The translations under genes and the position numbers were made by a program. The notes under the pieces were generated by a model that saw nothing but the letters and a program-made list of their open reading frames with translations, searched no databases and had not been told where the DNA came from. DNA of 64,000 nucleotides. Source: Planctomycetota bacterium. Its GTDB lineage: Bacteria > Planctomycetota > MHYJ01 > JACPRB01. This document shows positions 1,084-31,029 of the stretch, one piece after another. The stretch spans positions 15,085 to 79,084 of the forward strand of contig DASQOM010000064.1 of NCBI GenBank assembly GCA_035644495.1, written 5' to 3'. The number at the start of each line of letters is the position of its first letter. Position 1 is the first letter of the stretch.

Positions 1084-2805
1084 TCAATGAAGCGAGATCG
1101 GGACGTCGAAGGCGAGATCGGGCAGGCCCCGCAGCACGCCGCCCTGGGGCTTGACGCGGACGCTGACCGCGGGGCGGCCGTCGGAGACCGGGGCGGCGGA
1201 CGCCGTATAGACGGATCCGGACTCGGTCATGCCCATCAGCTGCAGCGCGGCCGCGATCGTGCGGGCGATGTCGCCGATGCCGTGGGTCATGTCGAGGTGG
1301 GCGAGCAGCGAATCCATCGCGGCGGCGATGTGCGAGGCGAAGAACGCGTAGCGCAGCGTCGTCGTCGGCTCGTCCTTGGCCGCCCGGTAGACGGTCGCGG
1401 TGCCCGCGGCGAAGGGCCGGTCGTTCCCGCGGCGGCAGGCGATGGGCAGGAGGCCGGCCTCGCCCAGGGCATTCGCGGCGGCCTCGGTCAGATCGCTTTC
1501 GAGCGGGGTCGTCTCCCCATCCCCCGGGCGCAGCGGCAGCGCCTCCAGCGCGGCGGCCGCGTCGCGCCCCGCGAAGTCCGAGCCCCAGCCGGTCTTGGCG
1601 AAGCTCGACGCGACGAAGCCGCCGAGCAGCCAGCCGGCGCGCCCCCAGGGGAGCGGCGGCTCCGCGACGGCGAGCTCCTCGAAGGCGAGGTCCCGGGTGG
1701 ACTCGCCCCCGGCGCCATACGGATTCCGGTAGAGGAAACGGTTGGCCGCCAGCGAGAGCCAGCGCGATGCCGGCGCCGAGCGGAGTCGGAGCCATTCGCC
1801 CTGCGACGCGTCGCCCATCCCGGCGGCGAGCTCGCGCAGCGCCACCTCCAGGCCGGCCGACCCGATCAGCGGGAGCGAGCGGGCGGCGGCGTCCTCGGCG
1901 AGCTTCAGCAGCTCCGCCTCGGAGCCGTCGAACGTGAAGTCGAGCAGCAGGCAGGACGTCTTGCCCTGGCTGCGGAGATCGTCGGCGAGCGGAAAGGCCG
2001 CGTCCCGGACCGCCTTGAGGAGGTTCTTGCGGGAGGCGGCGACGACGTGCAGGCGGCAGCCCGCGCGGAAGTCGACGGAGCGGACGAGGAGACGCAGCCC
2101 GCGCCAGGCGGACTCGAGCTCCTGGAATCGCGGATCATGCAGCACCGCGCGGAGCATCGGGGCGACCGCCGTCTCCGCCTGCGCGGCCACCGCTCTCAAC
2201 GCCGCGGGGACGGGCTTCGCGGCCCCGCCGCCGCCGAGGACGGCGTCGATCAGCCTCGCCGTCGTCTTCTCCACCTGCTCGGGCGAGGGTTCGTCGGACG
2301 GCGCGCTCGCGTCCGCGTCCACGAGGTCGAAGATGCTGCCGGTCGGGACGGGGCCCGCGGGCTTCGGGGCCGTCGGCGTCGCGGTCGGAGCCTTGGCGGT
2401 TGTCGAGAGCGCGGTCTCCAGGGCCTTCGCCAGCTGGGGATAGGCGCCGAGCTTTCCGAGCGATTGTTTGACGGAGTCGAGCGATCCGCCGCCCGCGGCC
2501 AGGTCGAGGACCTGCTTCTTGAAGTCGATCAGGTTCGCGAGGGCGGGGACGCGAGTGGCGAGACGGTCGGGGCGGAAGTCCTTGAACTCCTGGAAGGTGA
2601 GGACGGCCCGGGCCCCGCCGACGGGGACGTCGATGGACGGGCCGAGGGACCGCAGCAGCTCGTCGAGCGAGTCCTTGTCGACGGCGCGAGGTCGCGGGGC
2701 TCCGTCGGACCCGGGGAGCAGGTCGGAGATCACGATCAGGTTGAAAGAGGGATCGTTCTGTTCCATAAGCGGCATCTCTCCGACGCGGGACGGACCCCAC
2801 TCCAC
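1084..2805 (-). CDS. Fused TssB-TssC-like sheath paralog (573 aa)
   Basis: ORF 1084..2805. Residues 20-100 (FNLIVISDLLPGS...VDKDSLDELLRSL...LTFQEFKDFRPDRLATRVPAL) align with TssB at 14871. Residue ~228 has the TssC motif FQELESAWRGLRLLV. The C-terminal body is colinear with TssC (LYRNPYG~RLPYS; WLLGGFVASSFAKTGWG~LWGSSAFTFATKIADSF; LRYAFFASHIAAAMDSLLAHL~YRLGTQLPYLFIVNRLAHYIKVL; RPAVSVRVKPQGG~GWYKVDMRVRPHFKYMG). The start codon is uncertain: GTG at 2805 or ATG at 2775 (MPLMEQ). Confidence 0.65.
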   Translation of the reverse strand: MEWGPSRVGEMPLMEQNDPSFNLIVISDLLPGSDGAPRPRAVDKDSLDELLRSLGPSIDVPVGGARAVLTFQEFKDFRPDRLATRVPALANLIDFKKQVLDLAAGGGSLDSVKQSLGKLGAYPQLAKALETALSTTAKAPTATPTAPKPAGPVPTGSIFDLVDADASAPSDEPSPEQVEKTTARLIDAVLGGGGAAKPVPAALRAVAAQAETAVAPMLRAVLHDPRFQELESAWRGLRLLVRSVDFRAGCRLHVVAASRKNLLKAVRDAAFPLADDLRSQGKTSCLLLDFTFDGSEAELLKLAEDAAARSLPLIGSAGLEVALRELAAGMGDASQGEWLRLRSAPASRWLSLAANRFLYRNPYGAGGESTRDLAFEELAVAEPPLPWGRAGWLLGGFVASSFAKTGWGSDFAGRDAAAALEALPLRPGDGETTPLESDLTEAAANALGEAGLLPIACRRGNDRPFAAGTATVYRAAKDEPTTTLRYAFFASHIAAAMDSLLAHLDMTHGIGDIARTIAAALQLMGMTESGSVYTASAAPVSDGRPAVSVRVKPQGGVLRGLPDLAFDVPISLH

Positions 2806-2923
2806 CCTCAGGAGGAGGCGAAGTCAAGCAAAACGAAGGCGGGGCGCTTCCAAACCGCTATCTCCGAGGAGGATCGATTGACACCGGAAGGGCGGCAGAG
2901 GTAAGATTGCTGCCCGGCCGAAC

Positions 2924-5077
2924 ATGAATCAGGGAAAACCCCCCGGAGATTCTATCGACATCCCCCTGCTGGGCTCCTCGGCGGGAGGAAATCTTCGATT
3001 TGAATTGGCTCTCGCGGCGAAGGACGATTCCCTCGAGAGCCGGGACGACCCATTTGTTCCGCTGAACGACTCCAACCGCTTCACCCGCGTGCTCCTGGGC
3101 CGCGTGGCCTCCGGGGACGACCACACGCTGCATCCCGTCGCGGTGAAGATCCAGCGCAGCGTCTACCGCACCGCCGCCTCCGGCGCGGCGAAGGAGACGC
3201 TGAACAATCCGCTGGTCGAGGACATGTGGCGGCGGGAGCGGGAAAACCTGATCCACTGCGCGGGCAACGAGGTCGTGCCGCTGGTCGATCTGGGCGAGCA
3301 GCTGTTCCGGAACCCTCCGGTGACGTTCTGCAAGAAGATCCGCGCGTACTTCCATCCGCTCTGCCCCCGCTGCCGCGGGCCGCTGCGCGACTGCCGCGAC
3401 GACGCGCTCCTGCTGGACCTCAACCTGCCGGAGTATTCCCGCTCCCTGGTGCGGTACCTGTATTGCGCCGCCTGCGCGGCGAAGCCCGGCCGCAAGACGT
3501 TCTACACCACCGCGAGCCCCGCGGAGGACAAGCAGAAGGGGGACGTGGAGATCCGCCGCCGCGGCGAGCTCTACCGCGACTTCGGCGCGATCGTGAACGG
3601 GCTGTCCGCCGAAGAGCAGGCCCGGCTGTCCATCGCCTTCCCCTGCGCGGCGTGCCTGCACCGCGTGGAGTGCTATCCCGCGGAAGGCGCGAGCGGCAAG
3701 CCGATCCCCGCGGAGTCCCGGCTCGTGCCCGTGTCGTACTATGACTTCCATCTCCTTCCGCTGGAAGTGATGGAGCTCCATTATGACGAGATGAGCGACC
3801 TCCTCGGGGGCGCCTCCTGGCAGGTCCTGCGCGACCGGATCCGGAAGACGGCCGCCCCCGGCCGCGACCTCGTGCTGTCGGCGGTCGACGAGGTCTTCAC
3901 CTCCCCGGTGCAGTGGATCTATCGCGGCGACACGACGGGCCGCTTCGCGCTGGAGGTGCTCCACCTCAAGCTCAGCCTCTTCAGCCAGCTCAGCCGCGGC
4001 CTCCGCGCCTATCATGCGCGCTGCCGCGAGCCGCACCTCGACGTCAGCCCGAGCCAGGTGATGGTCGACATCGTCCCGGGCAGCACGAATCTTCCCGCCC
4101 GCTGGAATTTCCGCGTGCGGCTGATCGGCGTGGCGGGACCGCACCGCTTCGCGACCGAGGGAGCCCCCGAGGGGGCGCTGCCCCCGCTGCTCGTGCCGGC
4201 GCCCGACGCGGACAAGATCTTCATCTCCCCCTTCATCCGGAAGGCCGAGTTCGGCCGGGAGGAGCAGCTCCGCGTCACGATCCGGTCGATCCGCTCCGAA
4301 GGCGGCCACCTCAGGCTCGAGGGCAGCGCGTCCTCGGAACGGTCGCGGCTGGAAAACGTCCAGCCCGGCGACGTGATCCGGATGGCCTCCGCCTCCGCGG
4401 GCGGCCCGCTGGAGGGGGTCACGATCTGGGGCACCATCGCGGGCCCGGAGGAGCGCGGCATCCGCTTCACCGCGACGCTGGACGCCGCTTCGGGGCTCGA
4501 TCCGTCGAAGAAGCCCGGGGATTTCGACGCGGGCGTCGCCTTCTTCCCGAGGTTCCAGGTCCCCTGCGACCTGTTCGGGCTGGGGATGCTCTTCTTCCGG
4601 ACGCTGGTGGTCAACGACGGGACCGATCTGCTGGCGGTGGACGACGCCGTCCACCGCGTGCTCAAGAAGCTCACGCTCTGGCTCGAGGGGAAGAAGTCCC
4701 CCGCGGCCGCGCGCGTGGCCGGCGAGCTCATGCCGATCGTGGAACGCGAGAAAGAGGTGTTCGCCTCACCCTCGGTCCTGTACCTGCAGGAGGACCGGGA
4801 GGAGCGGGTGCGCGCGCTGCCGGCGAAGCTCTGGTCGGACATCCTCCTCTTCGGCTTCAAGCTCGTCACCTCGGTGCCGGGCTTCAGCTTCGCCACGGGC
4901 CATGCCGACTTCCGCGCCGAGAAGCCGGAGTCGCTCCTGGACCAGGTGATGACCGAGCTGGCGACGCTGGAGGACCGCGTCCGCATCGAGCTGTTCTCGA
5001 AAACCGAGCGGGACCGCGAGATCTTCGAGATCTGCAGCGAGCTTCTGGACCAGCTGCCGGGGCCGGGACGGGTCTGA
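2924..5077 (+). CDS. Hypothetical T6SS-associated protein (717 aa) with Cys-pair zinc-ribbon-like motifs; first gene of the T6SS operon
   Basis: Long ORF 4 nt upstream of fha, same strand, so it is very likely co-transcribed with it. It contains CPRC...(26 aa)...CAAC and CAAC...C motifs. There is a weak kinase-like stretch LLGRVASGDDHTLHPVAVKIQ but no HRD or DFG motif. I recognise no family. Confidence 0.5.
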   Translation: MNQGKPPGDSIDIPLLGSSAGGNLRFELALAAKDDSLESRDDPFVPLNDSNRFTRVLLGRVASGDDHTLHPVAVKIQRSVYRTAASGAAKETLNNPLVEDMWRRERENLIHCAGNEVVPLVDLGEQLFRNPPVTFCKKIRAYFHPLCPRCRGPLRDCRDDALLLDLNLPEYSRSLVRYLYCAACAAKPGRKTFYTTASPAEDKQKGDVEIRRRGELYRDFGAIVNGLSAEEQARLSIAFPCAACLHRVECYPAEGASGKPIPAESRLVPVSYYDFHLLPLEVMELHYDEMSDLLGGASWQVLRDRIRKTAAPGRDLVLSAVDEVFTSPVQWIYRGDTTGRFALEVLHLKLSLFSQLSRGLRAYHARCREPHLDVSPSQVMVDIVPGSTNLPARWNFRVRLIGVAGPHRFATEGAPEGALPPLLVPAPDADKIFISPFIRKAEFGREEQLRVTIRSIRSEGGHLRLEGSASSERSRLENVQPGDVIRMASASAGGPLEGVTIWGTIAGPEERGIRFTATLDAASGLDPSKKPGDFDAGVAFFPRFQVPCDLFGLGMLFFRTLVVNDGTDLLAVDDAVHRVLKKLTLWLEGKKSPAAARVAGELMPIVEREKEVFASPSVLYLQEDREERVRALPAKLWSDILLFGFKLVTSVPGFSFATGHADFRAEKPESLLDQVMTELATLEDRVRIELFSKTERDREIFEICSELLDQLPGPGRV

Positions 5078-5080
5078 CGC

Positions 5081-6367
5081 ATGACCTCCTATAAATTCGT
5101 CGTGAGCCTGACGACCTCGAAGGAACTGGCGCCGTCGGAGCACGTCCTGAGCAAGGACAAGATCATGATCGGCCGCTCGGCCGAGAACGACATTCCCCTT
5201 CCCGACAACGAGAAGCGGGTTTCGAGCAAGCACGCCCGCGTGGAGCGCGAGGGGACGAGCCTCCAGATCACCGACCTGGGCAGCACCAACGGGACCTTTG
5301 TCAACGGCCGGAAGATCGACGCCAATTCCGCGGTGGAGCTGAAGGACGGGGACAAGCTGTCGATCGGCCTGTACTCCCTCCTCGTGACGGCCGAGGAGGA
5401 GGATTCGGGCGACCGGACGATGGTCCTGGTCGATCCGTCGCGCCAGCTCGCGCAGCTGGTGGACGAACTGCCGGTCATCTACGCCCGGCATTCGGCCGCC
5501 CCGGAGGAGCAGCGACGCAGGATGCTCCGCGGGATGATCCAGTCGATGGTCAACTCCGTGGGTCCGGACAACGCCCGTTCCATCCTGATGCAGCTCCGCT
5601 CGCGGTTCCGTCCGGCGGACGGCGGCGTCGTGCCGGAGCGGACGACGGCGATCCGCCGCAAGGAGGCGGAGGTCAAGGCGCAGGAATCGTTCTCCTCGGC
5701 GGGGATGCGGGTGATGGGCGACCTCTCGGCGCAGTTCGTGGGCGAGGGGAAGCTCGAGACGACGGAACAGGCGGATCTCTTCGGGAAGCTGCTCGCCAAC
5801 GTGCTGGAGCTCACGTTCGACTGGATCTCGAAGAGTCTGCGGGGCCGCAAGGAGTTCGAGGAGCAGTTCAGCGCGGACCTCTCGATGATCTTCTCGAAAG
5901 AAAAGAACCCGCTCAAGGGGGGCGGCGGCCCCGGGGACATGGGGCGGTATCTCCTGGACTGGCGGGTGGCCCGGGACCCGAAGGGCATCCGGGACGCGCT
6001 GGACAACGCGTTCAAGGACCTGACCATGCACCAGCTGGGGCTGCTGGCCGGCGTCCAGGAGTCCCTCTCGGCGGTGCTGAAGCGTCTGGACCCGAAGGTC
6101 GTCGAGCAGGAAGGCAAGGAGATGGGCAAGGGCGGCTTCCTGGCGAGCTCGGAGAAGAAGGCCTGGAAGCGCTACTCGGAGGTCTTCCACGAGATCTTCG
6201 CCGAGAACAGCAAGCTGTTCAACGAGCTGATCTATCCGAACGTCCGGAAGGGGTATCTCGCGCTGCACGACAACGACGCCAAGGCGGGCGCGGAGAAGAA
6301 GGGGGACTCGACGAAAAAGGGGCCTGCCGCCCCGCCGTCCATCACGCAGAGAAATCCGGCTCAATAA
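5081..6367 (+). CDS. fha: FHA-domain protein (TagH/Fha-like T6SS regulator)
   Basis: N-terminal FHA signature: IMIGRSAENDIPLPDNEKRVSSKHARVEREGTSLQITDLGSTNGTFVNGRKI. Position between the novel protein and tssJ. Confidence 0.8.
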   Translation: MTSYKFVVSLTTSKELAPSEHVLSKDKIMIGRSAENDIPLPDNEKRVSSKHARVEREGTSLQITDLGSTNGTFVNGRKIDANSAVELKDGDKLSIGLYSLLVTAEEEDSGDRTMVLVDPSRQLAQLVDELPVIYARHSAAPEEQRRRMLRGMIQSMVNSVGPDNARSILMQLRSRFRPADGGVVPERTTAIRRKEAEVKAQESFSSAGMRVMGDLSAQFVGEGKLETTEQADLFGKLLANVLELTFDWISKSLRGRKEFEEQFSADLSMIFSKEKNPLKGGGGPGDMGRYLLDWRVARDPKGIRDALDNAFKDLTMHQLGLLAGVQESLSAVLKRLDPKVVEQEGKEMGKGGFLASSEKKAWKRYSEVFHEIFAENSKLFNELIYPNVRKGYLALHDNDAKAGAEKKGDSTKKGPAAPPSITQRNPAQ

Positions 6368-6381
6368 AGGGAGGAAAAGAG

Positions 6382-6825
6382 ATGAGAAAGACCGCCATGC
6401 TGGGAGCGGCGCTGACGTTGCTCAGCGCCTGCGGGGGAGGACCGACCTGGATGTACCTCCGCGGCGTCAAGCCCATGAACGAGAACGAGCGGAAGGAATC
6501 GAATGCCGTCGACGTCCGCATCTACCAGTTGAAGGACGACTCGCGCTTCAACCAGGCGACCGTCGACAAGCTGTGGACGGACGAGAAGGGCGCGCTGGCC
6601 GACGACCTGATCGCGATGAAGACGATCACGATCCAGCCCGGCGTCGCCGACGACAAGGCGACCGAGATCAACCTGGGCGACCTGCCCGACAGCGTGCGCT
6701 TCATCGGCGTGCTCGGCCTCTTTCCGAAGGAGGACGACAAGGGGCCCCGGAAGCTGGCGATCGCGAAGGCGAATTCGGGCGGCATCCTCCGGCTGACGGG
6801 CTACCACATCCTGGCGGAAAAATAG
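6382..6825 (+). CDS. tssJ: T6SS outer-membrane lipoprotein TssJ
   Basis: 147 aa with signal peptide and lipobox (MRKTAMLGAALTLLSAC). Size and position immediately upstream of tssK/tssL/tssM are typical of TssJ. GGGAGG RBS. Confidence 0.75.
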   Translation: MRKTAMLGAALTLLSACGGGPTWMYLRGVKPMNENERKESNAVDVRIYQLKDDSRFNQATVDKLWTDEKGALADDLIAMKTITIQPGVADDKATEINLGDLPDSVRFIGVLGLFPKEDDKGPRKLAIAKANSGGILRLTGYHILAEK

Positions 6826-6850
6826 TCCCGGACTCTATCAGGAGCCTTCC

Positions 6851-8200
6851 GTGGAATACGCGCAGAAAGTCCTGTGGAGCGAGGGGATGTTCCTCACCCC
6901 GCACCACTTCCAGCAGGCCGACCGATACATGGAGAGTCTGATCTCCCGGCGGCTCTCGGCGCTCCGGCCCCTCGGGTGGGGGGTCTGCCGGATCCAGATC
7001 AACACCGACGCGCTGGCCAACGGCGAGATGGTGCTGTCGAAATGCTCGGCGATCCTGCCCGACGGGATGGCGGTGGACACGCCGGATCTGGACCCGCTTC
7101 CGCCGGCGCGGCCCATCGAGGCGGCGTTCGACGCGAAGCGCAATTCCCTCGGGGTCTACCTGGCCTCCCCCCTGGCCCGGGCCGGCGGGGTGGCGTTCAG
7201 CGCGGAGGGCGCGGCCGACGGCCGGCCCACGCGGTACCACCGGCGCTCGCTGACGGCGTCGGACGAGAACAGCGGCGGCAGCGAGCGGGAGATCATCCTC
7301 GCGTCGAAGACGCTGCGGATCCTGTTCGACGGCGAGCCGCCCGACGATTACGCCACCCTGAAGATTGCGGAGCTGTCGCGGAGCGCGTCCGGAAAGTTCG
7401 CGCTGAACGAGTCGTACGTCCCGCCCTGCCTGCTGCTCTCCTCGTCGCCGCAGCTGGTGGCATACGTGCGGCGAATCCTCGAGATGATCTCGGCGAAGAG
7501 CAGCGATCTCTCGTCGACGCGGCGCCAGCGCTCGGCGGGCCTGGTGGAGTTCACGATGTCGGAAGCCGCGAACTTCTGGTTCCTGCACACGGTCAACGCG
7601 ACGATCCCGGTGCTGATGCACCTGCACAACCAGGGGGACGTGCATCCGGAGGAGGTCTTCCTGGTCCTCGCCCGCCTCGCAGGCGAGCTGTTCACGTTCT
7701 CGGGCGAGGGGCATCCGAAGGACCTTCCCGCCTACAGTCACGACGCGGTCGGCGCGTCGTTCTCGGCGATGGAAAAGAAGATCTCCGACCTCATGGGGAC
7801 GATCATCCCGACCAAGTGCGCGCCGATCCCGCTGGAGAAGCTGCGCGACTCGCTCTTCAAGGGCCAGCTGCGGGACGACCGTCTGCTCGACGGGCAGTTC
7901 TACCTGGCGGTGAGCGCCGAAGTGCCCGAGGAGAAGATCATCAAGGAAGTGCCGCTCAAGGCGAAGGTGAGCTCCAGCGACCGCGTGGACCAGCTGATCG
8001 CGGCCGCGCTCAAAGGGCTCCTCCTCCGCCATCTGCCGACGCCGCCGTCCGAGATTCCGGTCCAGCCCGGCCGGCAGTATTTCCAGGTGGACAAGTCCGG
8101 CGAGCACTGGGAGGCGGTGAAGAAGTCCCGCTCGATCTCGTTCTACATCCCGCCCGAGTTCAAGAACCTGAAACTCGAACTGATGGGAGTGAAGGAATAA
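6851..8200 (+). CDS. tssK: T6SS baseplate subunit TssK
   Basis: N-terminus VLWSEGMFLTPHHFQQADRY is the classic TssK start. 449 aa. Confidence 0.9.
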   Translation: MEYAQKVLWSEGMFLTPHHFQQADRYMESLISRRLSALRPLGWGVCRIQINTDALANGEMVLSKCSAILPDGMAVDTPDLDPLPPARPIEAAFDAKRNSLGVYLASPLARAGGVAFSAEGAADGRPTRYHRRSLTASDENSGGSEREIILASKTLRILFDGEPPDDYATLKIAELSRSASGKFALNESYVPPCLLLSSSPQLVAYVRRILEMISAKSSDLSSTRRQRSAGLVEFTMSEAANFWFLHTVNATIPVLMHLHNQGDVHPEEVFLVLARLAGELFTFSGEGHPKDLPAYSHDAVGASFSAMEKKISDLMGTIIPTKCAPIPLEKLRDSLFKGQLRDDRLLDGQFYLAVSAEVPEEKIIKEVPLKAKVSSSDRVDQLIAAALKGLLLRHLPTPPSEIPVQPGRQYFQVDKSGEHWEAVKKSRSISFYIPPEFKNLKLELMGVKE

Positions 8201-8203
8201 CGC

Positions 8204-8884
8204 ATGGCTGAATCAACGCCGACGGCCGCACCGCCGGCCCTGGCCGATCTCTGCGGCGACCTGCTGGCCTTCCAGCTCCAGCTGAAACGCTCGAGCGACC
8301 CGGGCGACGCCGAGGTCCTCCGCCAGAAGATCGACGAGCAGTTCCGCGCGCTGGAGACCAGGGCGCGGCAGGCCGACGTCCCGCAGGAGGACGTGCAGCA
8401 GGCCAAGTACGCGATCGCCGCATTCATCGACGAGATGATCCTGACGTCGTCGTGGGGGCTCAAGGATTCGTGGGCGGACAAGCCGCTCCAACTGGCCTAC
8501 TTCAACGACTTCGCCGCGGGCGAGGAGTTCTACAACAAGATCGACGCCCTCCGGGGCGCCAAGCGCAACAACGTGCTCGAGGTGTACTACCTCTGCCTGG
8601 CCCTGGGATTCCGGGGGAAATACGTGGACCTTCAGGGGATGGAGAAGAAGAAGGTCCTCATGGACACCATGCTGCGCGAGATCCGGGGGGCGGTGCCGGC
8701 CGTGCCGGCGGCCACGGGATTGTCGTCGTCCTGGCAGCCGCCGGACGCCCTGCCCGGCATCGTGAAGAATTTCCCGGCCTGGTTCGTGGCGGCGGCCTGC
8801 GGCCTGTTCATCATCCTGTTGTTCATCCTGCTGTCCACGCTGCTCGGGTCGTCGGCGGAAAACCTGGTCAAGTCCCTGAACTGA
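8204..8884 (+). CDS. tssL: T6SS membrane subunit TssL (DotU family)
   Basis: DotU-like N-domain (AKYAIAAFIDEMILTSSWG...WADKPLQLAYFND) plus a C-terminal TM helix. 226 aa. Confidence 0.85.
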   Translation: MAESTPTAAPPALADLCGDLLAFQLQLKRSSDPGDAEVLRQKIDEQFRALETRARQADVPQEDVQQAKYAIAAFIDEMILTSSWGLKDSWADKPLQLAYFNDFAAGEEFYNKIDALRGAKRNNVLEVYYLCLALGFRGKYVDLQGMEKKKVLMDTMLREIRGAVPAVPAATGLSSSWQPPDALPGIVKNFPAWFVAAACGLFIILLFILLSTLLGSSAENLVKSLN

Positions 8885-8900
8885 GGAAAAGGCGGAGAGC

Positions 8901-11900
8901 ATGAAGATCCTGGCGGCGATCGCAAAGGGAGGAACCACCCTTCTCCTCCTGCTCATCATCATCCTGCTCCTGATCTGGTTCGGGGGCGAGCAGTTCCATC
9001 TCGACAAGAAGATCCGCGTCATCGCGATCAGCGCGGTCCTGGCCATCGCGATCATCCTGGTCGTGATCCAGAAGTTGATGGCGGTCCGCAGCGCGCTGCT
9101 CATCGAGCAGAAGCTGAAGGCGCAGGCGCAGGAGCAGGTCGCCAGCGCCCGGCCCGACCAGCGCGCCGACGTCCAGGCCGTTCAGACCCAGCTCGACGAA
9201 GCCATCCAGGCCCTGAAGACGTCCCGCCTGGGCAAGGGCGCGCTCTACAAGCTGCCCTGGTACATGATCATCGGGCCGCCCGGCTCGGGCAAATCCACCG
9301 CGCTGCAGGAGTCCGGCCTGAACTTCCCCTATACCAGCCAGGGCAAGAAGGGGCTGCGCGGCGTCGGCGGCACCCGAAACTGCGACTGGTGGTTCACCGA
9401 CGAGGGCATCCTGCTCGACACCGCCGGCCGCTACACCACCGAGATCGACGACCGCGACGAATGGATCGGGTTCCTCAACCTGCTCAAGCAGGCGCGCAAG
9501 CACAAGCCGATCAACGGCGCCATGGTCGCTGTCAGCGTCTCCGACCTCCTCGGCTCGACCGAGGAGCAGCTCGAAGCGCACGCGAAGAACATCCGCGGCC
9601 GCGTCGACGAGCTGACGTCGACGCTCGAGATCGTGTTCCCGGTATACCTCCTGTTCACCAAGTGCGACCTGCTCCAGGGCTTCGTGGAGTTCTTCGAGGA
9701 CTTCTCGAAGAACGACCGCGCCCAGGTCTGGGGCTGCACCCTGCCCTACGCGCCTTCCGCCGGGAAGCCGTACCGGGAGATCTTCGAGGAGGAGACCGGA
9801 AAGCTGTTCAAGAACCTCTCGTCCCAGCGACTTTCGTCGCTGGCGACGGAGCGGCCGCCCCTGAAGAAGCAGAACATCTTCCTCTTTCCGCTGCAGTTCC
9901 AGGCGGGCATCAAGAAGATGGCGGACTTCGTCGAGGCTCTGTTCAAACCCAATCCCTTCCAGGAGACCTCGTACTTCCGCGGCTTCTATTTCACCAGCGG
10001 CACCCAGGAAGGGACGCCCATCGACCAGGTGATCAAGTCCATGAGCGCCGCCTTCGGCCTCAAAGAGGACGCCGCCCCCGCCCCGGCCGCGGTCGACAAG
10101 AAGAGCTACTTCATCAACCATCTGTTCACGAAGATCATCTTCCCGGACCAGACGCTGGCGCGGACGTCGGCGAAGGTGCTGAAGCGGCAGAAGATCGTGC
10201 ATTTCGGCACCCTCGCCCTTTCGGCGGTGGGGACGGTCCTGGTCACGATCATCCTGATCACCGCCTTCTTCGGGAACCGGAGCCTCATCAACTCCACCGA
10301 GGCGGCCGTGGCCAAGATGAAGGAAAGCGAGAAGCTGCCGCCCGCTGCAAGCCTGGAGGCGCTGGACGGCCTGCGCCACGAGATCGAGGCGCTGGACGAC
10401 TTCGACCGCAACGGCGCCCCGATCGCCCGGCGCTGGGGACTCTATCGCGGCAACGTCATCAATCCCCATGTCCGGAGCTATTACTTCGCCTCCCTCAAAC
10501 GGATCTTCCTCGTGCCCTGCGGGGACCGGATCCGGAAGGAGCTGGACGAGATCTTCCGGAAGGAGGCGCGGACGCCGGAGGACAACGAGCGGCTGGACGA
10601 CCTGCAGCGCGTCTACCAGATGCTCGCCGGAGAGCTGCCCGCCGAGAAGGAGCGCGATCTGCTCGAGAACATCCTGTCCAAGGAAGGCCGCTGGCTGAGC
10701 GGCGTGGGCGGCCAGCCGTCGCCGCTCGCGGACCGACAGCTCAAGCTCTTCCTCACCCAGCTCGACCGCAAGGACGAGTGGCGGATCCCCGTGGACAAGA
10801 TGATCATCAACCGGATCAACACCGAGCTGCGCCAGGGCCTCTGGGTGCTGCAGAGCTTCCGGGAGATCATCGACGCCGGCAAGAGCTCCTTCCCCAAGGT
10901 CACGGGCGAGCGCTTCGTCAGCGGCCGGGGCAAGGACCTGCTCAAGTTCAACTACTCGTTCCCCGGGCTCTTCACCCAGGAGGGCTGGAACGACTATATG
11001 AAGTCGGCCCTCAAATCCAAGGCGGAGTCCCTCGCGCGGCGCTACAAGGAGCTACAGATCGAAAAGGACCCCGTCAAGCTGGAAGCCGAGCTCCGCGAGC
11101 TCTACGTCCGGAAGTACGGGTCGGAGTGGGACGAGTTCCTGAAGGGGATCGAGGTGCTCCCCTTCCAGAACATGGAGGATTGCGACACCAAGACGAAGAC
11201 CCTGACGGACGACCAGTCCCCCTTCATCGCGCTGTTCAAGGGCGTCTGGGAGGCCCAGAACCTCCGGGTGTCCGACACGGACGTGCCCGTCATCGTCGAT
11301 CTGAAGCCGCTGACCGAGGCGCGGACGGCGTTGATCGACCTGCAGGTGCTCGTGGGCGACTTCATCGCGACGACGCAGCCGGGCAATCGCGTGGCCGGCT
11401 CGATGAAGGAGGGCAAGCTGCAGCCATTCCTGGACGGCTTCAAGAAGGCGAACCGGGGGCTGACGACGGCGGTGAACACCGCCCCGGCGCTCAACCGGCC
11501 CCGGATGCAGGAGATTCTGTACCAGGTCATCGACAAGACCCGGGCCTCCCTCGCTCTCGAGGCTCAGAAGGAGGCCGACGAGATGTGGGCGAACACCGTC
11601 GCGAAGCTCTATAAGGAATCCATCGTCGGCCGCTACCCCTTCGATGAGACCTCCGCGTCGGCGGTGTCGATCGCGGCGATCACGCTCCTTTTCAATCCGC
11701 AGACCGGCGTGTTCTGGAACAAAGTCAACGATCTGCGGATCCTCAACGGCCTCAACCTGGAGAGCAAGCCGCTGGTGGCCTTCTCCCGCGACTTCAATTC
11801 GTCGGTGAAGAAGGCGGAGTCCTTCCGCCAGGGCCTGTTCCGGAAAGACGGGGACCGCATCAACGTGCCGTTCAAGGTCACGCTCAAGCAGCGCGAAGGC

Positions 11901-12266
11901 GTCACCCACCTCAAGTTCACGGTCGGCAAGAAGGAGTTCAACCACAACGACCGGCCCGACAACCGCGGCGATCTGGTCTGGGAGGGCGAAGCGGGAGCCA
12001 GCCTGCAGATCCGGGTGGCCGGGGTGGACCGCTGGCACCCGAAGGAGTTCAAGGACGACTGGGGCCTGCTGCGCCTCATCGCGTCGGGGAGTCCCCAGCC
12101 GTCGGGCGACAAGAGCTTCGCCTGCTCGTGGGATTTCAAGATCACGCGGCTCGGGACGGATCAGGTCTTCGTCGGAGACGTGCTCCTCGAGGGCGACGAC
12201 CGCGTGAACCCGTTCCAGAAGGATTTCTTCTCAAAGTTCAGCGTCCCCGACAAGGTGGGTCCCTGA
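8901..12266 (+). CDS. tssM: T6SS membrane subunit TssM (IcmF family)
   Basis: 1121 aa. N-terminal TM helices and a Walker A motif (GPPGSGKST). IcmF-like length and context. Confidence 0.9.
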   Translation: MKILAAIAKGGTTLLLLLIIILLLIWFGGEQFHLDKKIRVIAISAVLAIAIILVVIQKLMAVRSALLIEQKLKAQAQEQVASARPDQRADVQAVQTQLDEAIQALKTSRLGKGALYKLPWYMIIGPPGSGKSTALQESGLNFPYTSQGKKGLRGVGGTRNCDWWFTDEGILLDTAGRYTTEIDDRDEWIGFLNLLKQARKHKPINGAMVAVSVSDLLGSTEEQLEAHAKNIRGRVDELTSTLEIVFPVYLLFTKCDLLQGFVEFFEDFSKNDRAQVWGCTLPYAPSAGKPYREIFEEETGKLFKNLSSQRLSSLATERPPLKKQNIFLFPLQFQAGIKKMADFVEALFKPNPFQETSYFRGFYFTSGTQEGTPIDQVIKSMSAAFGLKEDAAPAPAAVDKKSYFINHLFTKIIFPDQTLARTSAKVLKRQKIVHFGTLALSAVGTVLVTIILITAFFGNRSLINSTEAAVAKMKESEKLPPAASLEALDGLRHEIEALDDFDRNGAPIARRWGLYRGNVINPHVRSYYFASLKRIFLVPCGDRIRKELDEIFRKEARTPEDNERLDDLQRVYQMLAGELPAEKERDLLENILSKEGRWLSGVGGQPSPLADRQLKLFLTQLDRKDEWRIPVDKMIINRINTELRQGLWVLQSFREIIDAGKSSFPKVTGERFVSGRGKDLLKFNYSFPGLFTQEGWNDYMKSALKSKAESLARRYKELQIEKDPVKLEAELRELYVRKYGSEWDEFLKGIEVLPFQNMEDCDTKTKTLTDDQSPFIALFKGVWEAQNLRVSDTDVPVIVDLKPLTEARTALIDLQVLVGDFIATTQPGNRVAGSMKEGKLQPFLDGFKKANRGLTTAVNTAPALNRPRMQEILYQVIDKTRASLALEAQKEADEMWANTVAKLYKESIVGRYPFDETSASAVSIAAITLLFNPQTGVFWNKVNDLRILNGLNLESKPLVAFSRDFNSSVKKAESFRQGLFRKDGDRINVPFKVTLKQREGVTHLKFTVGKKEFNHNDRPDNRGDLVWEGEAGASLQIRVAGVDRWHPKEFKDDWGLLRLIASGSPQPSGDKSFACSWDFKITRLGTDQVFVGDVLLEGDDRVNPFQKDFFSKFSVPDKVGP

Positions 12267-13192
12267 TGCGACTCTCCGCCGGATGTTTCGGGAAGCTGCC
12301 GATCCACGGCGACTTCATCCGCCACAACGTCGGTCCCGAGGTGGACCGTCTGGACGAGTGGCTCCAGGCCGGGATCGTCTCCTCCCGCACGGCCATGGGG
12401 ACGGCCTGGGACGGGTCGTTCGACGCCACCCCGCCGCAGCGCTTCCTCTACCAGGTTGCCGGGGGGCGCGTGGTGGCGGGGGTGGTCGCAGCGTCGATCG
12501 ACAAGCCGGGCCGGCGCTACCCGTTCCTGATCTTCACGATCCTGGATCCGAAATCACTGGGGGGCGAGGTCACGTCGCTCCCCGCCCAGCTGAGCTCGTT
12601 CTTCCACCGGGCGGAGCAGGAGGCCCTGACGGGGTGGCAGGGGCAGGAGTTGAAGAGCTATCTCACGAGGATCGATGCGCTGGCCCTGCCGGCGGATTTC
12701 GAGGATGCGAAACAGTCGCTGATCAAATTCGTCGCGGGCCAGACCGTGCAGGCCTTCTGGAACACCCTGTTCGGTTCGGACCAGGATCCCCGCAAGTACA
12801 TGCTGATCCACAACCTCGTGGAGACTCTGAAGGGCGGGGCGGTGCCGAAATACGCGCTGCGCTTCCCGCAGGTCTCGGCCGACGCGGAGGTGGCGTTCTG
12901 GGAGGAGCTGTGCCGGAAGCTGGCCCGCCGGCCCGGGCTGCCCACGCTGTCGCTCTGGGGCAGCGGGAGGGAGGCCGGGCATCCGGGGCTGTCGATGGTC
13001 TTCGACGACCTGAAGGCGACCTACTTCTCGGCGCTGTGGTGGCCCGAAAAGAAGAACAACCTGATGTTCCCCCTGGCCGAGGAGACCGCCGGGACGGATA
13101 CGCGGCTGTCGGCGGCCAAGAGCAAGTATGCTGCATTGCTGGACGACGGGAACATGCGGCTGTCGAATTTGATGGTCCGGCTTGGATCCTGA
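12266..13192 (+). CDS. tagF: T6SS-associated protein TagF
   Basis: Start MRLSAGCFGKLPIHGDFIRHN matches the TagF (DUF2094) N-terminal motif. ATGA overlap with the tssM stop. Confidence 0.8.
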   Translation: MRLSAGCFGKLPIHGDFIRHNVGPEVDRLDEWLQAGIVSSRTAMGTAWDGSFDATPPQRFLYQVAGGRVVAGVVAASIDKPGRRYPFLIFTILDPKSLGGEVTSLPAQLSSFFHRAEQEALTGWQGQELKSYLTRIDALALPADFEDAKQSLIKFVAGQTVQAFWNTLFGSDQDPRKYMLIHNLVETLKGGAVPKYALRFPQVSADAEVAFWEELCRKLARRPGLPTLSLWGSGREAGHPGLSMVFDDLKATYFSALWWPEKKNNLMFPLAEETAGTDTRLSAAKSKYAALLDDGNMRLSNLMVRLGS

Positions 13193-14870: not shown

Positions 14871-15374
14871 ATGGCGAAGGAAGGATCGGTAGCGCCCAGG
14901 GAACGGGTCAACATCGTGTACAAGCCCGCCACGGGTGACGCGAAGGAGGAGAAGGAACTGCCCCTGAAGTTCCTCGTGATGGGCGACTTCACGGGCCGTC
15001 CGGACGACCGGACGCTGGAAGACCGGAAGCCCGTCAACGTCGACAAGGACAACTTCAACGACGTCATGCGGGGCATGAACCTCAGCGCCACGTACTCGGT
15101 GGCTGACAAGCTTTCCGGCAAGGAGGGGTCGGAGATCCCGGTCAACCTCAAGTTCTCGACCCTGAAGGACATGGAGCCCGAGGCCGTCGCGCGCCAGGTG
15201 CCCGAACTCAACAAGCTGTTGGAGCTTCGCGAGGCGCTGACGGCGCTGAAGGGGCCCCTGGGCAACCTGCCGGAGTTCCGAAAGAAGATCCAGTCGCTGG
15301 TGTCCGATCCCGCCGCCAAGGAGAAGCTCCTGAAGGAGCTCGGCGGCGGCGCTGCGCCGGAAGAGAAGAAGTAG
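14871..15374 (+). CDS. tssB: T6SS sheath small subunit TssB (VipA)
   Basis: 167 aa. LKFLVMGDFTGRPDD...PVNVDKDNFNDVMRGM...VNLKFSTLKDMEPEAVARQVPEL. Confidence 0.9.
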   Translation: MAKEGSVAPRERVNIVYKPATGDAKEEKELPLKFLVMGDFTGRPDDRTLEDRKPVNVDKDNFNDVMRGMNLSATYSVADKLSGKEGSEIPVNLKFSTLKDMEPEAVARQVPELNKLLELREALTALKGPLGNLPEFRKKIQSLVSDPAAKEKLLKELGGGAAPEEKK

Positions 15375-15415: not shown

Positions 15416-16903
15416 ATGCCAGACGAGGCAGCCAAAAGCGCCGGACAACCCGCCGCGGCCGACGCCGCCGCGGGCTCCCTGCTCGACGAGATCATGGTCC
15501 AGACGAAACTCAAGCCCAACGACGAGGGCTATGAGGTCGCGAAAAAGGGCGTGCAGGCCTTCATTGCGCAGCTGCTGGCACCGGCCGGTGCCAACCAGAA
15601 GGCGGACAAGAAAGTCGTCGACAGCATGATTACGGAGATCGACGAAAAGCTTTCCCGCCAGCTCGACGAAGTGATGCATGCCGCGTCCTTCCAGAAGCTG
15701 GAGTCCGCGTGGCGCGGCCTGAAGCTGATGGTCGACCGGACGGATTTCCGCGAAAACTGCAAGGTCAACATCGTCAACGTGTCGAAGGAAGACCTGCTGA
15801 CCGATTTCGAGGATTCGCCCGAAATCGTGAAGTCGGGTCTTTACAAGACCGTGTACACGGGTGAATACGGCCAGTTCGGCGGCGAGCCCTACGGGGCGAT
15901 GATCGCCAACTACGAATTCGCTGCCGGCGCCCAGGACATCGCCCTGCTGGCGAAGGTCGCCAGCGTGGCCACCATGGCCCACTGCCCGTTCATCTCCTCG
16001 GCAGCCCCGAAGATGTTCGGCCTGGACAGCATCCAGAAGCTGCCGAACCTCAAGGACTTGAAGTCGGTCTTCGAGGGGCCGCAGTACGCAAAGTGGCAGT
16101 CCTTCCGGGAGTCGGAGGACGCCCGCAGCGTGGGTCTGACCGTGCCGCGCTTCCTGCTGCGGCTTCCCTACAGCTCGACCACGATCCCGGTCAAGGCCTT
16201 CAATTACGAGGAAGGTGTCCGGGGCAAGCACGACGCCTATCTGTGGGGCTCGAGCGCGTTCACTTTCGCCACGAAGATTGCCGACAGCTTCGCGAAATAC
16301 CGCCAGTGCGCGAATATCATCGGACCGACCTCCGGCGGCGCGGTGGAAGACCTGCCCCTGCACCAGTTCGAGTCGATGGGTGAGATCGAAACCAAGATTC
16401 CAACGGAAATCCTGATTTCGGAGCGCCGGGAGTACGAACTGTCCGAGGAAGGATTCATCGCCCTGTCGATGCGAAAGGGAAGCGACAACGCCGCGTTTTT
16501 CTCCGCGAATTCCTGCCAGAAGCCCAAGCGGTTCGGGAACACGAAGGAAGGCAAGGACGCGGAACTCAATTACCGGCTGGGCACCCAGCTTCCTTACCTC
16601 TTCATTGTCAACAGGTTGGCTCATTACATCAAAGTGCTTCAGCGCGAGCAGATCGGCTCCTGGAAGGAGAAGGGCGACCTTCACCGCGAGCTGAACGCCT
16701 GGATCAGCCAGTATGTGGTGAACATGGACAATCCTAGCCCCACCGTGCGCAGCCGCTGTCCCCTGAGGGCGGCGGAAATCATCGTGGAGGACGTCCCGGG
16801 CGAGGCGGGCTGGTACAAGGTGGATATGCGGGTTCGCCCCCACTTCAAGTATATGGGAGCATTTTTCACGCTCTCCCTGGTGGGCAAGCTGGACAAGAAG
16901 TAA
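15416..16903 (+). CDS. tssC: T6SS sheath large subunit TssC (VipB)
   Basis: 495 aa. FQKLESAWRGLKLMVDRTDF; GEYGQFGGEPYGAMIANYEF. Confidence 0.95.
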   Translation: MPDEAAKSAGQPAAADAAAGSLLDEIMVQTKLKPNDEGYEVAKKGVQAFIAQLLAPAGANQKADKKVVDSMITEIDEKLSRQLDEVMHAASFQKLESAWRGLKLMVDRTDFRENCKVNIVNVSKEDLLTDFEDSPEIVKSGLYKTVYTGEYGQFGGEPYGAMIANYEFAAGAQDIALLAKVASVATMAHCPFISSAAPKMFGLDSIQKLPNLKDLKSVFEGPQYAKWQSFRESEDARSVGLTVPRFLLRLPYSSTTIPVKAFNYEEGVRGKHDAYLWGSSAFTFATKIADSFAKYRQCANIIGPTSGGAVEDLPLHQFESMGEIETKIPTEILISERREYELSEEGFIALSMRKGSDNAAFFSANSCQKPKRFGNTKEGKDAELNYRLGTQLPYLFIVNRLAHYIKVLQREQIGSWKEKGDLHRELNAWISQYVVNMDNPSPTVRSRCPLRAAEIIVEDVPGEAGWYKVDMRVRPHFKYMGAFFTLSLVGKLDKK

Positions 16904-25938: not shown

Positions 25939-25944
25939 GAAGCC

Positions 25945-27981
25945 GTGATTCTCCGGAACGAATCATCCTTCAAGGCAGGCTGGGTGGAATGGCAGATCCG
26001 CCCTCCGAAACCCTCCGTCACGTTCGTGGTGAAGGGCACCTTCGACCTCAAGCACGGAGCGACGGCGACGCTGTCGGCCGAGCCGGCGGATGTTTCCGGA
26101 GACCTGTTCCTCCAGGACGACCTGAAAAAGGCGCTGGTGTACTCCTCCGACCTGGCGCCGTTCAAACCCATGGCGGACGTCTTCGTCTCCGGATGCGCCT
26201 ATGTCCCCGGGAAAGGGACGACGGACGTCCTGCGGGTGTCGTTCCAGGCGGGGCGGGTCTCCAAGTCCCTGGCCGTCATCGGCGACCGGCTCTGGCGCAA
26301 GGGTTTCCTCGGCAGCACGATGACCCCGATCATTCCTTTCCGCAGGATGGACCTCACGTACGACCGGAGCTACGGAGGGGAGGGCTACGCGTGGAATCCG
26401 CTCGGCCGCGGATACGCCGAGGAAGCGGGACCGGACGGCAAACCGGCGCTGCGGCTTCCGAATCTCGAGGACCCCGCGAAGCTCATCAGCAGTCCGTCCG
26501 ATACGCCGGAGCCTGCGGGATTCGGCCCCTTTCCGCTGACCTGGCCGCAGCGGATGTCGAAGTCGGGGACCTATAAGGGCAACTGGCTCAAGGAACGATT
26601 CCCCTGGTTCCCGGACGATTTCAACTGGGGCTTCTTCAATGCCGCACCCCCGGACCAGCAGGCCGCGTACTTCCGCGGGGACGAAAAGCTGCGGTTTGAG
26701 AACCTGCACCGCGATCGACCGATCTTCGAGTCGGCGCTTCCCGGATACCGGGTGCGCTGCTTCTACGCCGAGGTCACCGTCGCCGTCGTCCGGATGGTCG
26801 AAGTCCCGATGGTGCTCGACACCGTCTATGCCGACCTGGAACGCGAAAAGCTGATCCTCGTCTGGCGCGGCGACACGGACCTCGAGCGGCCGAAACTGGC
26901 GCCGGACGACACGATGTTCGTGGTGGCCGACAAGCTGACCGATCCCCCGACGCCGATCGCGGCCATCGAGAAGAGGTTGCGTGCTCTCGTTCCCGGTGCG
27001 CAGCCCGAGCTCCCGCCGCCCGTTCCGGAGCCGTCGCCCCTGCCCGCGGTCGCGGCGCCGTCCGGCCCGCCACGGGAGGAACTTGCCCGGCAGATCTCGG
27101 GCGGCGCCGGGATGACGAACGCGGACCTGACGGGTGCGGATCTCTCGGGGTTCGATCTGTCGGGTCAGGACCTGTCGGGGTGCATCCTGGCGGGAGCGAA
27201 CCTCCGGAAAGCCAATCTTGCGGGCACCAAGCTCGTCGGCGCCGTCCTCGCCGAAGCCGATTTGTCCAGGGCCTCGCTCAAGGGGGCCGACCTGTCGAAA
27301 GCCGATTTCAGCGGCGCGCGCCTGGCCGGAGCCGATCTCTCCGGCGCCAGGCTCGATGGGGCGGTGTTCGAGGAAGCGATGCTGCCGGCCGCGACGCTGA
27401 CCGGGGCGCAGGGCAAGGGAGTCCTGTTCACGGGCGCGAGGCTCCGGCGGGCCGTTCTGAAACAGGCGGTCCTTCCCGGCGCCGTCTTCGCGGACGCCGT
27501 GCTGAACGAAGCCGATCTGTCCGGCGCGATCCTGGCGGGAGCAACGTTTGAAGGCGCGTACGCGAACCCCGTGAAGTTCAACGGGGCCGACCTGACCGCC
27601 GTCAAGGCGTCGGGAGCAAACTTCCGCGCGTCGTCATTCCGGAAGATCGTCGCGCCGAAATCCGTCTGGCAGGGGGCCCGGCTCTACGCGGCGGACTTCT
27701 CCGAGGCCGATCTTTCCGAGGCGGAGTTCAGCGCCGCGTACCTCGAGGAAGCCCGGTTCAACATGGCGACGCTCCGCCGCGCCAAGCTCATGGAAGCGGT
27801 GATGCGCCACGCCGAGCTCATCCGCTGCGACCTGTTCGCGGCGGGCCTCTCAAAGGCGGACCTCACCGGCGCCAATTTCAGCGAATCGAATCTGTTCAAG
27901 GCGGACCTGCTGAAGTCGCCCCGCGAAGGGGCGAAGTTCCAGAACGCCAACGTCCAGAGAACCTGGTTGGTCTTCAAGTGA
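25945..27981 (+). CDS. DUF2169-like domain fused to pentapeptide-repeat domain (VgrG-proximal adaptor-like protein)
   Basis: 678 aa. N-terminal ~350 aa globular domain; I assign it to DUF2169 from memory of its architecture and its position after vgrG. C-terminal ~320 aa are canonical A(D/N)LxG pentapeptide repeats (ADLSGFDLSGQDLSGCILAGANLRKANLAG...). Confidence 0.65.
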   Translation: MILRNESSFKAGWVEWQIRPPKPSVTFVVKGTFDLKHGATATLSAEPADVSGDLFLQDDLKKALVYSSDLAPFKPMADVFVSGCAYVPGKGTTDVLRVSFQAGRVSKSLAVIGDRLWRKGFLGSTMTPIIPFRRMDLTYDRSYGGEGYAWNPLGRGYAEEAGPDGKPALRLPNLEDPAKLISSPSDTPEPAGFGPFPLTWPQRMSKSGTYKGNWLKERFPWFPDDFNWGFFNAAPPDQQAAYFRGDEKLRFENLHRDRPIFESALPGYRVRCFYAEVTVAVVRMVEVPMVLDTVYADLEREKLILVWRGDTDLERPKLAPDDTMFVVADKLTDPPTPIAAIEKRLRALVPGAQPELPPPVPEPSPLPAVAAPSGPPREELARQISGGAGMTNADLTGADLSGFDLSGQDLSGCILAGANLRKANLAGTKLVGAVLAEADLSRASLKGADLSKADFSGARLAGADLSGARLDGAVFEEAMLPAATLTGAQGKGVLFTGARLRRAVLKQAVLPGAVFADAVLNEADLSGAILAGATFEGAYANPVKFNGADLTAVKASGANFRASSFRKIVAPKSVWQGARLYAADFSEADLSEAEFSAAYLEEARFNMATLRRAKLMEAVMRHAELIRCDLFAAGLSKADLTGANFSESNLFKADLLKSPREGAKFQNANVQRTWLVFK

Positions 27982-28565: not shown

Positions 28566-28569
28566 TGCC

Positions 28570-29565: not shown

Positions 29566-29581
29566 GGAGAGAGAGGACGCC

Positions 29582-30948: not shown

Positions 30949-31029
30949 CGCAGCCCGTTCTTTGTGGCTGCAACCGGGGTCCGACGCTAAGATGAGCCCG
31001 CTCGAGACTGGGAAGGTGGGAATGTCGCG

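Follow-up and report, generated by a model that had tools for sequence, protein, structure and literature searches.

The DNA analysed here, hereafter the window, is a stretch of 64,000 nucleotides (nt) from a Planctomycetota bacterium (GCA_035644495.1, contig DASQOM010000064.1) that carries a type VI secretion system (T6SS) gene cluster. The first gene of its divergently transcribed, co-directional fha-tssJKLM-tagF operon encodes a 717-amino-acid (aa) protein (Table 1) which, in agreement with the original prediction that it resembles no known Tss or Tag protein, gave no Pfam or NCBIfam match at E<=0.01. Profile comparisons, structural modelling and the genomic context of its relatives point to a kinase-fold accessory protein, predicted to be a pseudokinase, from a family that occurs in T6SS clusters and is repeatedly fused to the FHA-domain protein TagH/Fha.

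The gene at the head of the operon and its family

The open reading frame (ORF), which begins with ATG and had been described as encoding an uncharacterised 717-aa product, is a real gene: its composition is of coding type, its GC content at third codon positions (GC3) reaches 0.92, compared with 66% GC for the window, and resembles that of the neighbouring tss genes, and a word-indexed search returned at least 70 close full-length homologs. The NCBI model of an identical protein (P0001, 690 aa) takes codon 28, an internal TTG, as its start and so lacks the 27 residues encoded from the upstream ATG (2924-3004, +). Because residues 1-27 are conserved across homologs, the ATG at 2924 is the better supported start. 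Judged by hydropathy, the product is soluble and cytoplasmic; no transmembrane segment was found (maximum 19-residue Kyte-Doolittle hydropathy 1.47), nor was a VWA or any other Pfam domain.

The position of the gene as the first of the co-directional tss operon, already proposed in the original prediction, was borne out. The actual upstream gene lies on the minus strand (GC3 0.93), and the gene is therefore the first of a divergent unit. A 742-aa plus-strand ORF (676-2904) was considered as the first gene of the operon and rejected as a shadow ORF, having a GC3 of 0.76, no family match and a minus-strand gene opposite; long shadow ORFs are typical of high-GC DNA, and this one could be mis-called as the operon head. 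The direct adjacency to fha also stood, whereas the gap proved to be 3 nt rather than 4 nt, the TGA ending at 5077 and the ATG of fha lying at 5081. The divergent spacer contains a promoter candidate with 10/12 consensus matches, the sole such site within 2600-5300 (0.1 expected in shuffles), which is a sigma-70 consensus match only in a group whose promoters are poorly known.

All 70 relatives from the word-indexed search are annotated as 'hypothetical' or, if fused, as 'FHA domain-containing', and repeating this search with the 136-sequence family alignment returned only the same 70 proteins, with no added taxonomic breadth. An exhaustive profile search retrieved 1,456 cluster representatives at 50% identity with E<=1e-3, 905 of them at E<=1e-30. 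The members with an organism name all belong to Planctomycetota (Planctomycetaceae, Planctomycetales, Phycisphaerae or Phycisphaerales), the named relatives from the word-indexed search being Planctomycetota metagenome-assembled genomes. Restriction of the family to this phylum is provisional, since it rests on the named minority and most members are metagenomic sequences.

Genomic context was assessed in 13 distinct loci, comprising the window, 11 loci left after duplicate removal and one known from its gene list only (P0059); a contig profile scan with a narrower alignment gave 6 loci. All 13 lie in T6SS clusters. In 8 the family gene stands directly before fha or forms one reading frame with it, and tssJ/K/L/M come next, in most cases together with tagF. 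Among the top 150 representatives at 50% identity, 15 are fusions to an essentially full-length TagH (FHA plus T6SS_FHA_C), and these fusion proteins are mutually less than 50% identical. In the loci examined, the family is thus found exclusively in a T6SS context and is repeatedly fused to whole TagH. The original prediction had assigned the gene to the slot of PpkA/PppA/TagR-type regulators, and this assignment agrees with two findings: orthologous clusters likewise have the gene as the first of their fha-tssJKLM-tagF operon, and it is recurrently fused to Fha. No match to a housekeeping family that would sever the link with the T6SS was found, and the gene is present in the orthologous T6SS clusters.

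In remote branches the gene next to the family member encodes no FHA domain. One such neighbour, of 227 aa at L003, shows a marginal likeness to the post-FHA part of TagH (hhalign 59.8%, E 8.8e-5), and the others show none. The unannotated genes that follow the family member in L013 and L015 were considered as cryptic TagH and rejected (hhalign 0.2-0.5%).

Kinase ancestry, catalytic residues and inserts

In the family alignment, kinase-like landmarks follow one another in canonical order: RVLLGRVASG, resembling a G-loop, then VAVKIQ with the beta3 lysine and W..RE with the alphaC glutamate, and, towards the C-terminus, a long helix, the catalytic loop PHLDVSPSQVMV, RLIGVAG at the DFG slot, the APE-like ISP and PCDLFGLGML at subdomain IX. 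The original prediction had singled out a degenerate kinase-like stretch (LLGR...VAVKIQ) lacking HRD and DFG. The stretch is there, at residues 57-77, and the DFG aspartate is indeed missing, but an equivalent of HRD persists as HLD at residues 371-373 within PHLDVSPSQVMV. Across the 136 diverse members of the alignment, the alphaF aspartate (D549, within PCDLFGLGMLFFR) is the sole invariant column (136/136), W102 is kept in 119 and K75 in 82.

The profile of the clade containing the 717-aa protein matched only SRPK/Sky1 kinases in the PDB, at E about 1, aligned at alphaE and the catalytic loop. Divergent members with intact motifs (P0095, P0114, P0123, P0131 and P0162) carry PHLDLKPENIMV followed by IDLA[SAC], and for the profile of the intact-motif subfamily the top 60 PDB matches are all protein kinases (best E 1.5e-4), including twitchin, MLCK, DAPK, CLK, SRPK and ULK3. 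Sub-threshold Pfam Pkinase matches occur in 6 of 12 members of this subfamily; the PF00069 gathering threshold (31.7 bits) was not reached, the best relative scoring 26.1 bits and the 717-aa protein giving no match at E<=0.01.

In profile-profile comparison with true kinases (hhalign), the intact-motif subfamily (A3) aligned to the window's own true kinase at 89.6% (E 1.9e-6) and to four local true kinases at 95.3% (E 2.3e-8), while the values against the same four were 69.3% (E 4.3e-5) for the 136-member family (A2) and 53.2% (E 1.3e-4) for the target clade (A1), the last being a moderate score on its own. The target-clade alignment keeps its register from alphaE to alphaF, including the HxD loop, beta7/8, the DFG slot and the APE-like motif, with segment 444-545 appearing as a pure insertion between APE and alphaF. 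The N-lobe is also in register with the true kinase (VAVKIQ/VALKIL, W.RE/F.RE), at low probability.

The AlphaFold2 (AF2) model of the 717-aa protein (pLDDT 86.8, pTM 0.87) has an order of secondary-structure elements that fits a kinase core with two inserts. A whole-chain Foldseek search against the PDB returned nothing at E<=1e-3; the weak recurrent kinase matches were to insert-bearing proteins, namely SRPK1/2, Sky1p, Haspin and JAK, the last with a template-modelling score of 0.56. With high confidence, the family as a whole can be placed on this evidence within the superfamily of Hanks-type kinases, as one of its divergent branches. For the 717-aa protein itself the case for Hanks-type ancestry is good, though partly transitive, and the whole chain, beyond any one stretch, is best described as a predicted remodelled protein-kinase fold.

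Column statistics over the 136-member alignment illustrate the decay of the catalytic machinery. The beta3 lysine column (K75 in the 717-aa protein) contains K in 82 members, W in 30 and R in 9; the HRD aspartate column (D373) is split among N (36), D (30), G (29) and A (23); the loop lysine column (S375) is mostly S; the loop asparagine column (Q378) holds N in 50, S in 37, H in 20 and R in 14; and the DFG aspartate column (G402) has D in 75 and G in 33. The K/D/N/D tetrad is complete in 10 members, while 67 keep one residue of it or none. The 717-aa protein retains two of the four (K75 and D373), with Q378 and G402 substituted; the alphaC glutamate E105 is kept, S375 replaces the loop lysine, and the losses are thus confined to the loop lysine, the loop asparagine and the DFG aspartate. 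This signature marks a family composed mostly of putative pseudokinases, with a few members possibly active, and the 717-aa protein is predicted to be an inactive one.

Some of the intact-motif members are also longer. The member at 10001-13213 of L014 (P0123) and its relatives P0114, P0131 and P0162 have a canonical loop (HLDLKPEN, IDLAS) and an extra C-terminal region of about 300 aa, in which neither FHA nor a TagH C-domain was detectable; the latter assignment, at 8.7% in hhalign, was set aside as wrong or undetectable. The T6SS cluster around P0123 has no fha in the vicinity of this gene.

Two segments interrupt the predicted kinase core. The first is Cys-rich and holds the Cys-pair clusters that the original prediction had pointed out as consistent with a zinc ribbon. 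One, of the zinc-ribbon type CPxC...CxxC, consists of C147, C150, C181 and C184 (about 55/136 members), its CPRC (147-150) and CAAC (181-184) motifs being invariant in the close clade; the other, CxxCx5C, consists of C241 and C244 (CAAC, 241-244) with C250, perhaps together with C136 (about 90/136). A near-universal signature, C157-RDD..L...GLP.Y..S..RYL, accompanies them, C157 being present in 129/136. Modelled alone, the Cys-rich domain (112-335) gave a confident prediction (pLDDT 86.2), for which Foldseek found no PDB fold match (best E 2.3) and only faint resemblances of the insert to rubredoxin, MCM and NrdR (E>4). The insert probably binds zinc. The second insert is a predicted beta-barrel; about 100 residues of it matched FAD-binding-type barrels of siderophore-interacting proteins in Foldseek (probability 1.0), with an E of 8e-3 that falls short of significance. 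An RxxxR motif (450-454) had suggested by eye that the barrel might be PilZ-like, a reading dropped for want of Pfam or Foldseek support.

Table 1. Features of the operon-head gene and of its neighbours in the window; residue numbers refer to the encoded proteins.
Feature	Position	Strand	Description
Gene for the 717-aa protein	2924-5077	+	Cytoplasmic T6SS accessory protein with a predicted kinase fold, predicted pseudokinase
Sigma-70-like promoter candidate	2878-2907	+	TTGACA-18-TAAGAT; 17 nt 5' of the ATG, within the divergent spacer of 118 nt
N-lobe equivalent (residues about 24-143)	2993-3352	+	RVLLGRVASG; VAVKIQ with K75; alphaC 95-111 with W102 and E105
Cys-rich insert (residues about 144-335, about 190 in all)	3353-3928	+	Between the N-lobe strands and alphaE
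alphaE, degenerate catalytic loop, beta7/beta8, DFG slot	3941-4132	+	PHLDVSPSQVMV (371-381); I-G-V (401-403); in register with kinase HRDLKPEN and DFG
Activation-segment region and beta-barrel insert	4133-4558	+	APE-like ISP (434-436), then six-stranded barrel (about 445-541) before alphaF; AF2 model and alignment
alphaF and remainder of the helical C-lobe	4559-5074	+	PCDLFGLGMLFFR with D549; aligns with DxWxxG of subdomain IX
fha/tagH	5081-6367	+	428 aa; FHA domain and T6SS_FHA_C; PF00498 9e-20, PF20232 4e-23, TIGR03354 9e-37
tssJ	6382-6825	+	Conserved module
tssK	6851-8200	+	Conserved module
tssL	8204-8884	+	Conserved module
tssM	8901-12266	+	Conserved module
tagF (ORF)	12128-13192	+	Conserved module; start uncertain
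Divergent neighbour	1084-2805	-	573-aa single polypeptide; Pfam VipA-like (39-131) and VipB-like (323-470) regions
Hanks-type Ser/Thr kinase	33737-36685	-	982 aa; Pkinase 2.8e-54; far end of the T6SS cluster

Neighbouring genes in the window

The Fha protein encoded directly downstream has intact phospho-threonine-binding residues, as read from its sequence (G31-R32, S48/S49, H51 and N70), and a phospho-threonine ligand is therefore to be expected somewhere in the pathway. The conserved module from tssJ to tagF spans 6382-13192 (+), and the same synteny was seen in other loci. The first 139 nt of the tagF ORF still belong to the 3' part of tssM, and the TagF_N match starts only at ORF residue 52, so the true start probably lies further downstream. 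The cluster continues with tssA, tssB, tssC, hcp, tssE, tssF, a 371-codon open frame at the tssG position, clpV and vgrG, after which comes a DUF2169/DUF3540/PAAR-like toxin/Imm49 module. This effector region (23362-33719, +) encodes VgrG, a DUF2169 protein fused to pentapeptide repeats, DUF3540, a small protein with an Aspzincin_M35 peptidase domain, a 331-aa Tox-PAAR-like protein with an Imm49 immunity gene, and a 639-aa protein that consists of little else than pentapeptide repeats, in 19 stretches.

On the other side, the 573-aa divergent neighbour resembles a fused TssB-TssC 'extra sheath' protein; canonical tssB (14871-15374) and tssC (15416-16903) are also present in the cluster. Similar fused VipA-VipB-like genes recur beside family members at L006/L008, L009 and L005. 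Beyond the 573-aa gene, a second minus-strand ORF (about 1-1100) runs off the start of the window and probably corresponds to the 432-aa VipB-like gene of L006.

Within the operon, PpkA was not found among the Pfam-scanned ORFs, and no PP2C phosphatase (PppA/TagG) was found among the 37 window ORFs scanned with Pfam, a set that leaves out small ORFs and the region 42.4-45.5 kb. The phospho-threonine recognised by Fha might be supplied by the 982-aa Hanks-type kinase encoded at the cluster's far end, a link that is conjectural. It adjoins a gene for an ECF-type sigma factor (36753-37442, -), a pair that recalls PknS/EcfK, the activator of the Xanthomonas citri T6SS (PMC13584744), and at L001 a sigma-70 r2/r4 gene directly follows tagF. 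Four further loci (L009, L011, L013 and that of P0059) also have a true kinase close to the family member. In L013 (4057-9219, -) and the P0059 locus these are Pkinase plus FGE-sulfatase proteins (1,720 aa and 990 aa) encoded directly and divergently upstream of family members that share only 26% and 45% identity with the 717-aa protein; such a protein may be a recurrent true-kinase partner.

Outside the T6SS cluster, the window holds a 760-aa ORF (49339-51621, -) whose Cpn60/TCP-1 match begins only at residue 211, which could reflect an N-terminal extension or an over-long ORF call, and a gene for a ParB_N plus HD-domain protein (55697-57616, +).

Proposed role and comparison with known systems

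The 717-aa protein is probably an undescribed accessory factor working with Fha. On balance, we lean slightly towards reading it as a cytoplasmic pseudokinase adaptor that binds TagH/Fha and helps to control its engagement with TssJKLM/TssK, opposite TagF. In such a scheme, a descendant of a Hanks-type kinase would have become a T6SS accessory factor dedicated to TagH/Fha, its two inserts supplying new surfaces, with the Cys-rich domain in the N-lobe/hinge region and the beta-barrel after the APE-like motif and before alphaF. The protein would bind TagH/Fha as an adaptor or scaffold, either directly or via phospho-threonine written by a separate true kinase, for which it may serve as a phospho-docking platform, and, acting against TagF, would help to control how Fha is recruited to the TssJ/K/L/M assembly. 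Its place would correspond to that of the membrane kinase PpkA in proteobacterial clusters. A broader proposal, put forward tentatively and with doubt prevailing, is a Planctomycetota-wide replacement of the PpkA/PppA switch, in which a soluble pseudokinase would gate TagH-dependent T6SS assembly through its zinc/Cys-rich fold, not seen before, and its barrel, phosphorylation-free or as a docking platform that a separate true kinase phosphorylates, while minority lineages would still have the ancestral active enzyme. If true, one family would allow the conversion of a kinase into a pseudokinase within a secretion machine to be traced.

Several observations weigh against the adaptor reading. 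The evidence for contact between the protein and Fha is genomic only, consisting of adjacency and recurrent gene fusion. No conserved threonine that could act as FHA ligand was found in the flexible loops of the 717-aa protein, the threonine of the 'LTNP' motif of its homologs being replaced by asparagine. In remote branches (<=26% identity; L013, L014, L015 and L005) no FHA gene is adjacent, and Fha cannot therefore be the sole partner across the family. Moreover, K75, E105 and D373 are retained, and the close clade shares them. Since the DFG aspartate is dispensable in some kinases, CASK for example, residual or atypical catalysis by the 717-aa protein is possible on its residue pattern.

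The same residues are the starting point for a different reading, in which the protein would be catalytically active as an atypical Ser/Thr kinase and would act as a soluble PpkA equivalent that phosphorylates Fha, TssL or itself with a non-canonical metal arrangement. The full catalytic set of 10/136 relatives, five of them with canonical HLDLKPEN, indicates that the ancestor was catalytic and that some lineages probably remain so; the functional-looking phospho-threonine pocket of Fha implies a kinase in the pathway, and the operon yielded no PpkA. We nevertheless regard this as unlikely for the 717-aa protein, which is without three ATP/metal-coordinating or substrate-orienting residues (K375->S, N378->Q, D402->G) and carries a beta-barrel inserted just past the activation segment. 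Family-wide, the HRD-Asp column is divided in roughly equal parts among N, D, G and A, unlike that of a conserved enzyme, and the nearby true Hanks kinases could supply the phosphorylation. The Cys-rich insert could instead make the protein a signal sensor, binding zinc or reading redox or metal status to switch T6SS assembly, with the kinase scaffold as a mere conformational relay. The seven to eight cysteines in two clusters, invariant in the target clade and widely conserved, and the confident modelling of the insert as an autonomous domain without known structural relative are compatible with this. Yet CPxC...CxxC clusters are most often structural zinc sites, and ligand or redox sensing has no direct support; the subfamily with W in place of the beta3 lysine is without both Cys clusters and stays in T6SS clusters, so that the Cys sites are not essential to the core role of the family. 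A sensor is, on these grounds, somewhat harder still to credit.

The protein might also be a structural subunit of a planctomycete-specific T6SS variant, for example together with the fused TssB-TssC-like protein, with no regulatory part in threonine phosphorylation and its adjacency to Fha reflecting co-assembly only. The recurrence of the fused VipA-VipB-like gene beside family members and the occurrence of the family in clusters without adjacent fha would fit such a role, which we hold to be very improbable: the sheath-like neighbour is missing from most loci, and the 15 independent clusters with a full-length TagH fusion, together with the conserved order from the family gene through fha to tagF, tie the family to the Fha/TagF pair. 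It is scarcely credible that the protein is a secreted effector, or that it has a housekeeping function and its gene happens to lie beside the cluster. Kinase-fold effectors exist in other secretion systems, but nothing specific favours one here; the gene stands at the regulatory/membrane-complex end, away from vgrG/PAAR and with no immunity-like partner, and the TagH fusions in many lineages and the T6SS location of all loci examined speak against both possibilities.

The adaptor reading would bear on a question already recognised in the literature. How TagH/Fha is controlled in T6SS clusters without PpkA is acknowledged as an open point in a 2026 review of T6SS accessory genes, which has no pseudokinase, zinc or Planctomycetota entry (PMC13584744), and a 2025 review of bacterial pseudokinase families includes no T6SS or Planctomycetota family (PMC12599244); a description of the family was not found in full-text literature searches. 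The T6SS in Planctomycetota is essentially unstudied. With 1,456 clusters, a conserved position and many TagH fusions, the family is a concrete candidate for TagH/Fha control. It spans active-looking and degenerate members, thus offering a natural system for the change from kinase to scaffold, and deserves a profile model of its own to replace 'hypothetical protein' annotations.

Among solved structures, SRPK/Sky1p gave the best sequence and Foldseek matches of the target clade; the aligned parts are alphaE and the catalytic loop, and these kinases likewise tolerate big inserts in the core. With E about 1 by sequence and 0.05-0.1 in Foldseek, the matches fall short of significance and denote a fold resemblance only, SRPKs being active eukaryotic kinases whose spacer is placed differently from the inserts described here. 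Another close counterpart is PpkA/TagE of Pseudomonas H1, Agrobacterium and Serratia, a Hanks-type Ser/Thr kinase that acts in the threonine-phosphorylation pathway of the T6SS. The two share the kinase superfamily, the regulatory slot of the T6SS cluster, the tie to Fha/TagH and the presence of TagF (PMC13584744), and PpkA/TagE is likewise encoded with the FHA protein, an arrangement found here in 8/13 loci and in the 15 fusion representatives. PpkA/TagE differs in having a transmembrane segment and a periplasmic (vWA-type) sensor domain, both missing from the 717-aa protein, and in being without the two large inserts. The 717-aa protein, for its part, has no Pfam Pkinase match and has lost the catalytic Lys, Asn and DFG-Asp; no PppA phosphatase was found among the Pfam-scanned ORFs of its cluster, and the named members of its family are only from Planctomycetota.

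Pairing of a pseudokinase with an FHA protein has precedents. In type VIIb secretion (T7SSb), the pseudokinase YukC binds the FHA domains of YukB in a phospho-independent manner (bioRxiv 10.1101/2020.05.09.085852; PMC12599244). EssB/YukC thus resembles the 717-aa protein as a degraded kinase fold in a secretion machine with an FHA partner (YukB/EssC), the binding of Fha being inferred in our case; no sequence relationship with YukC beyond the superfamily was detected. EssB/YukC resides in the membrane and its pseudokinase domain is short, at about 210 residues, whereas the 717-aa protein is predicted to be soluble and carries the Cys-rich and barrel inserts, and the FHA partners of YukC are without the phospho-threonine-binding residues that Fha keeps. 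In mycobacteria, the pseudokinase of MviN (MurJ) recruits FhaA after phosphorylation by PknB (PMC12599244), so that a pseudokinase docks an FHA protein while a separate true kinase phosphorylates, which matches the neighbouring-kinase model proposed here. MviN acts in cell-wall synthesis, is membrane-anchored and actinobacterial, in all of which the 717-aa protein differs, and no candidate phospho-site was seen in the latter. The logic of a pseudokinase paired with an FHA protein is therefore the same as for YukC and MviN, in another architecture and lacking their membrane anchoring. What was known is a kinase-fold regulator paired with Fha in the T6SS; what is new is the domain architecture and one insert without known fold, in what would be the third secretion- or envelope-related case of a pseudokinase paired with an FHA protein.

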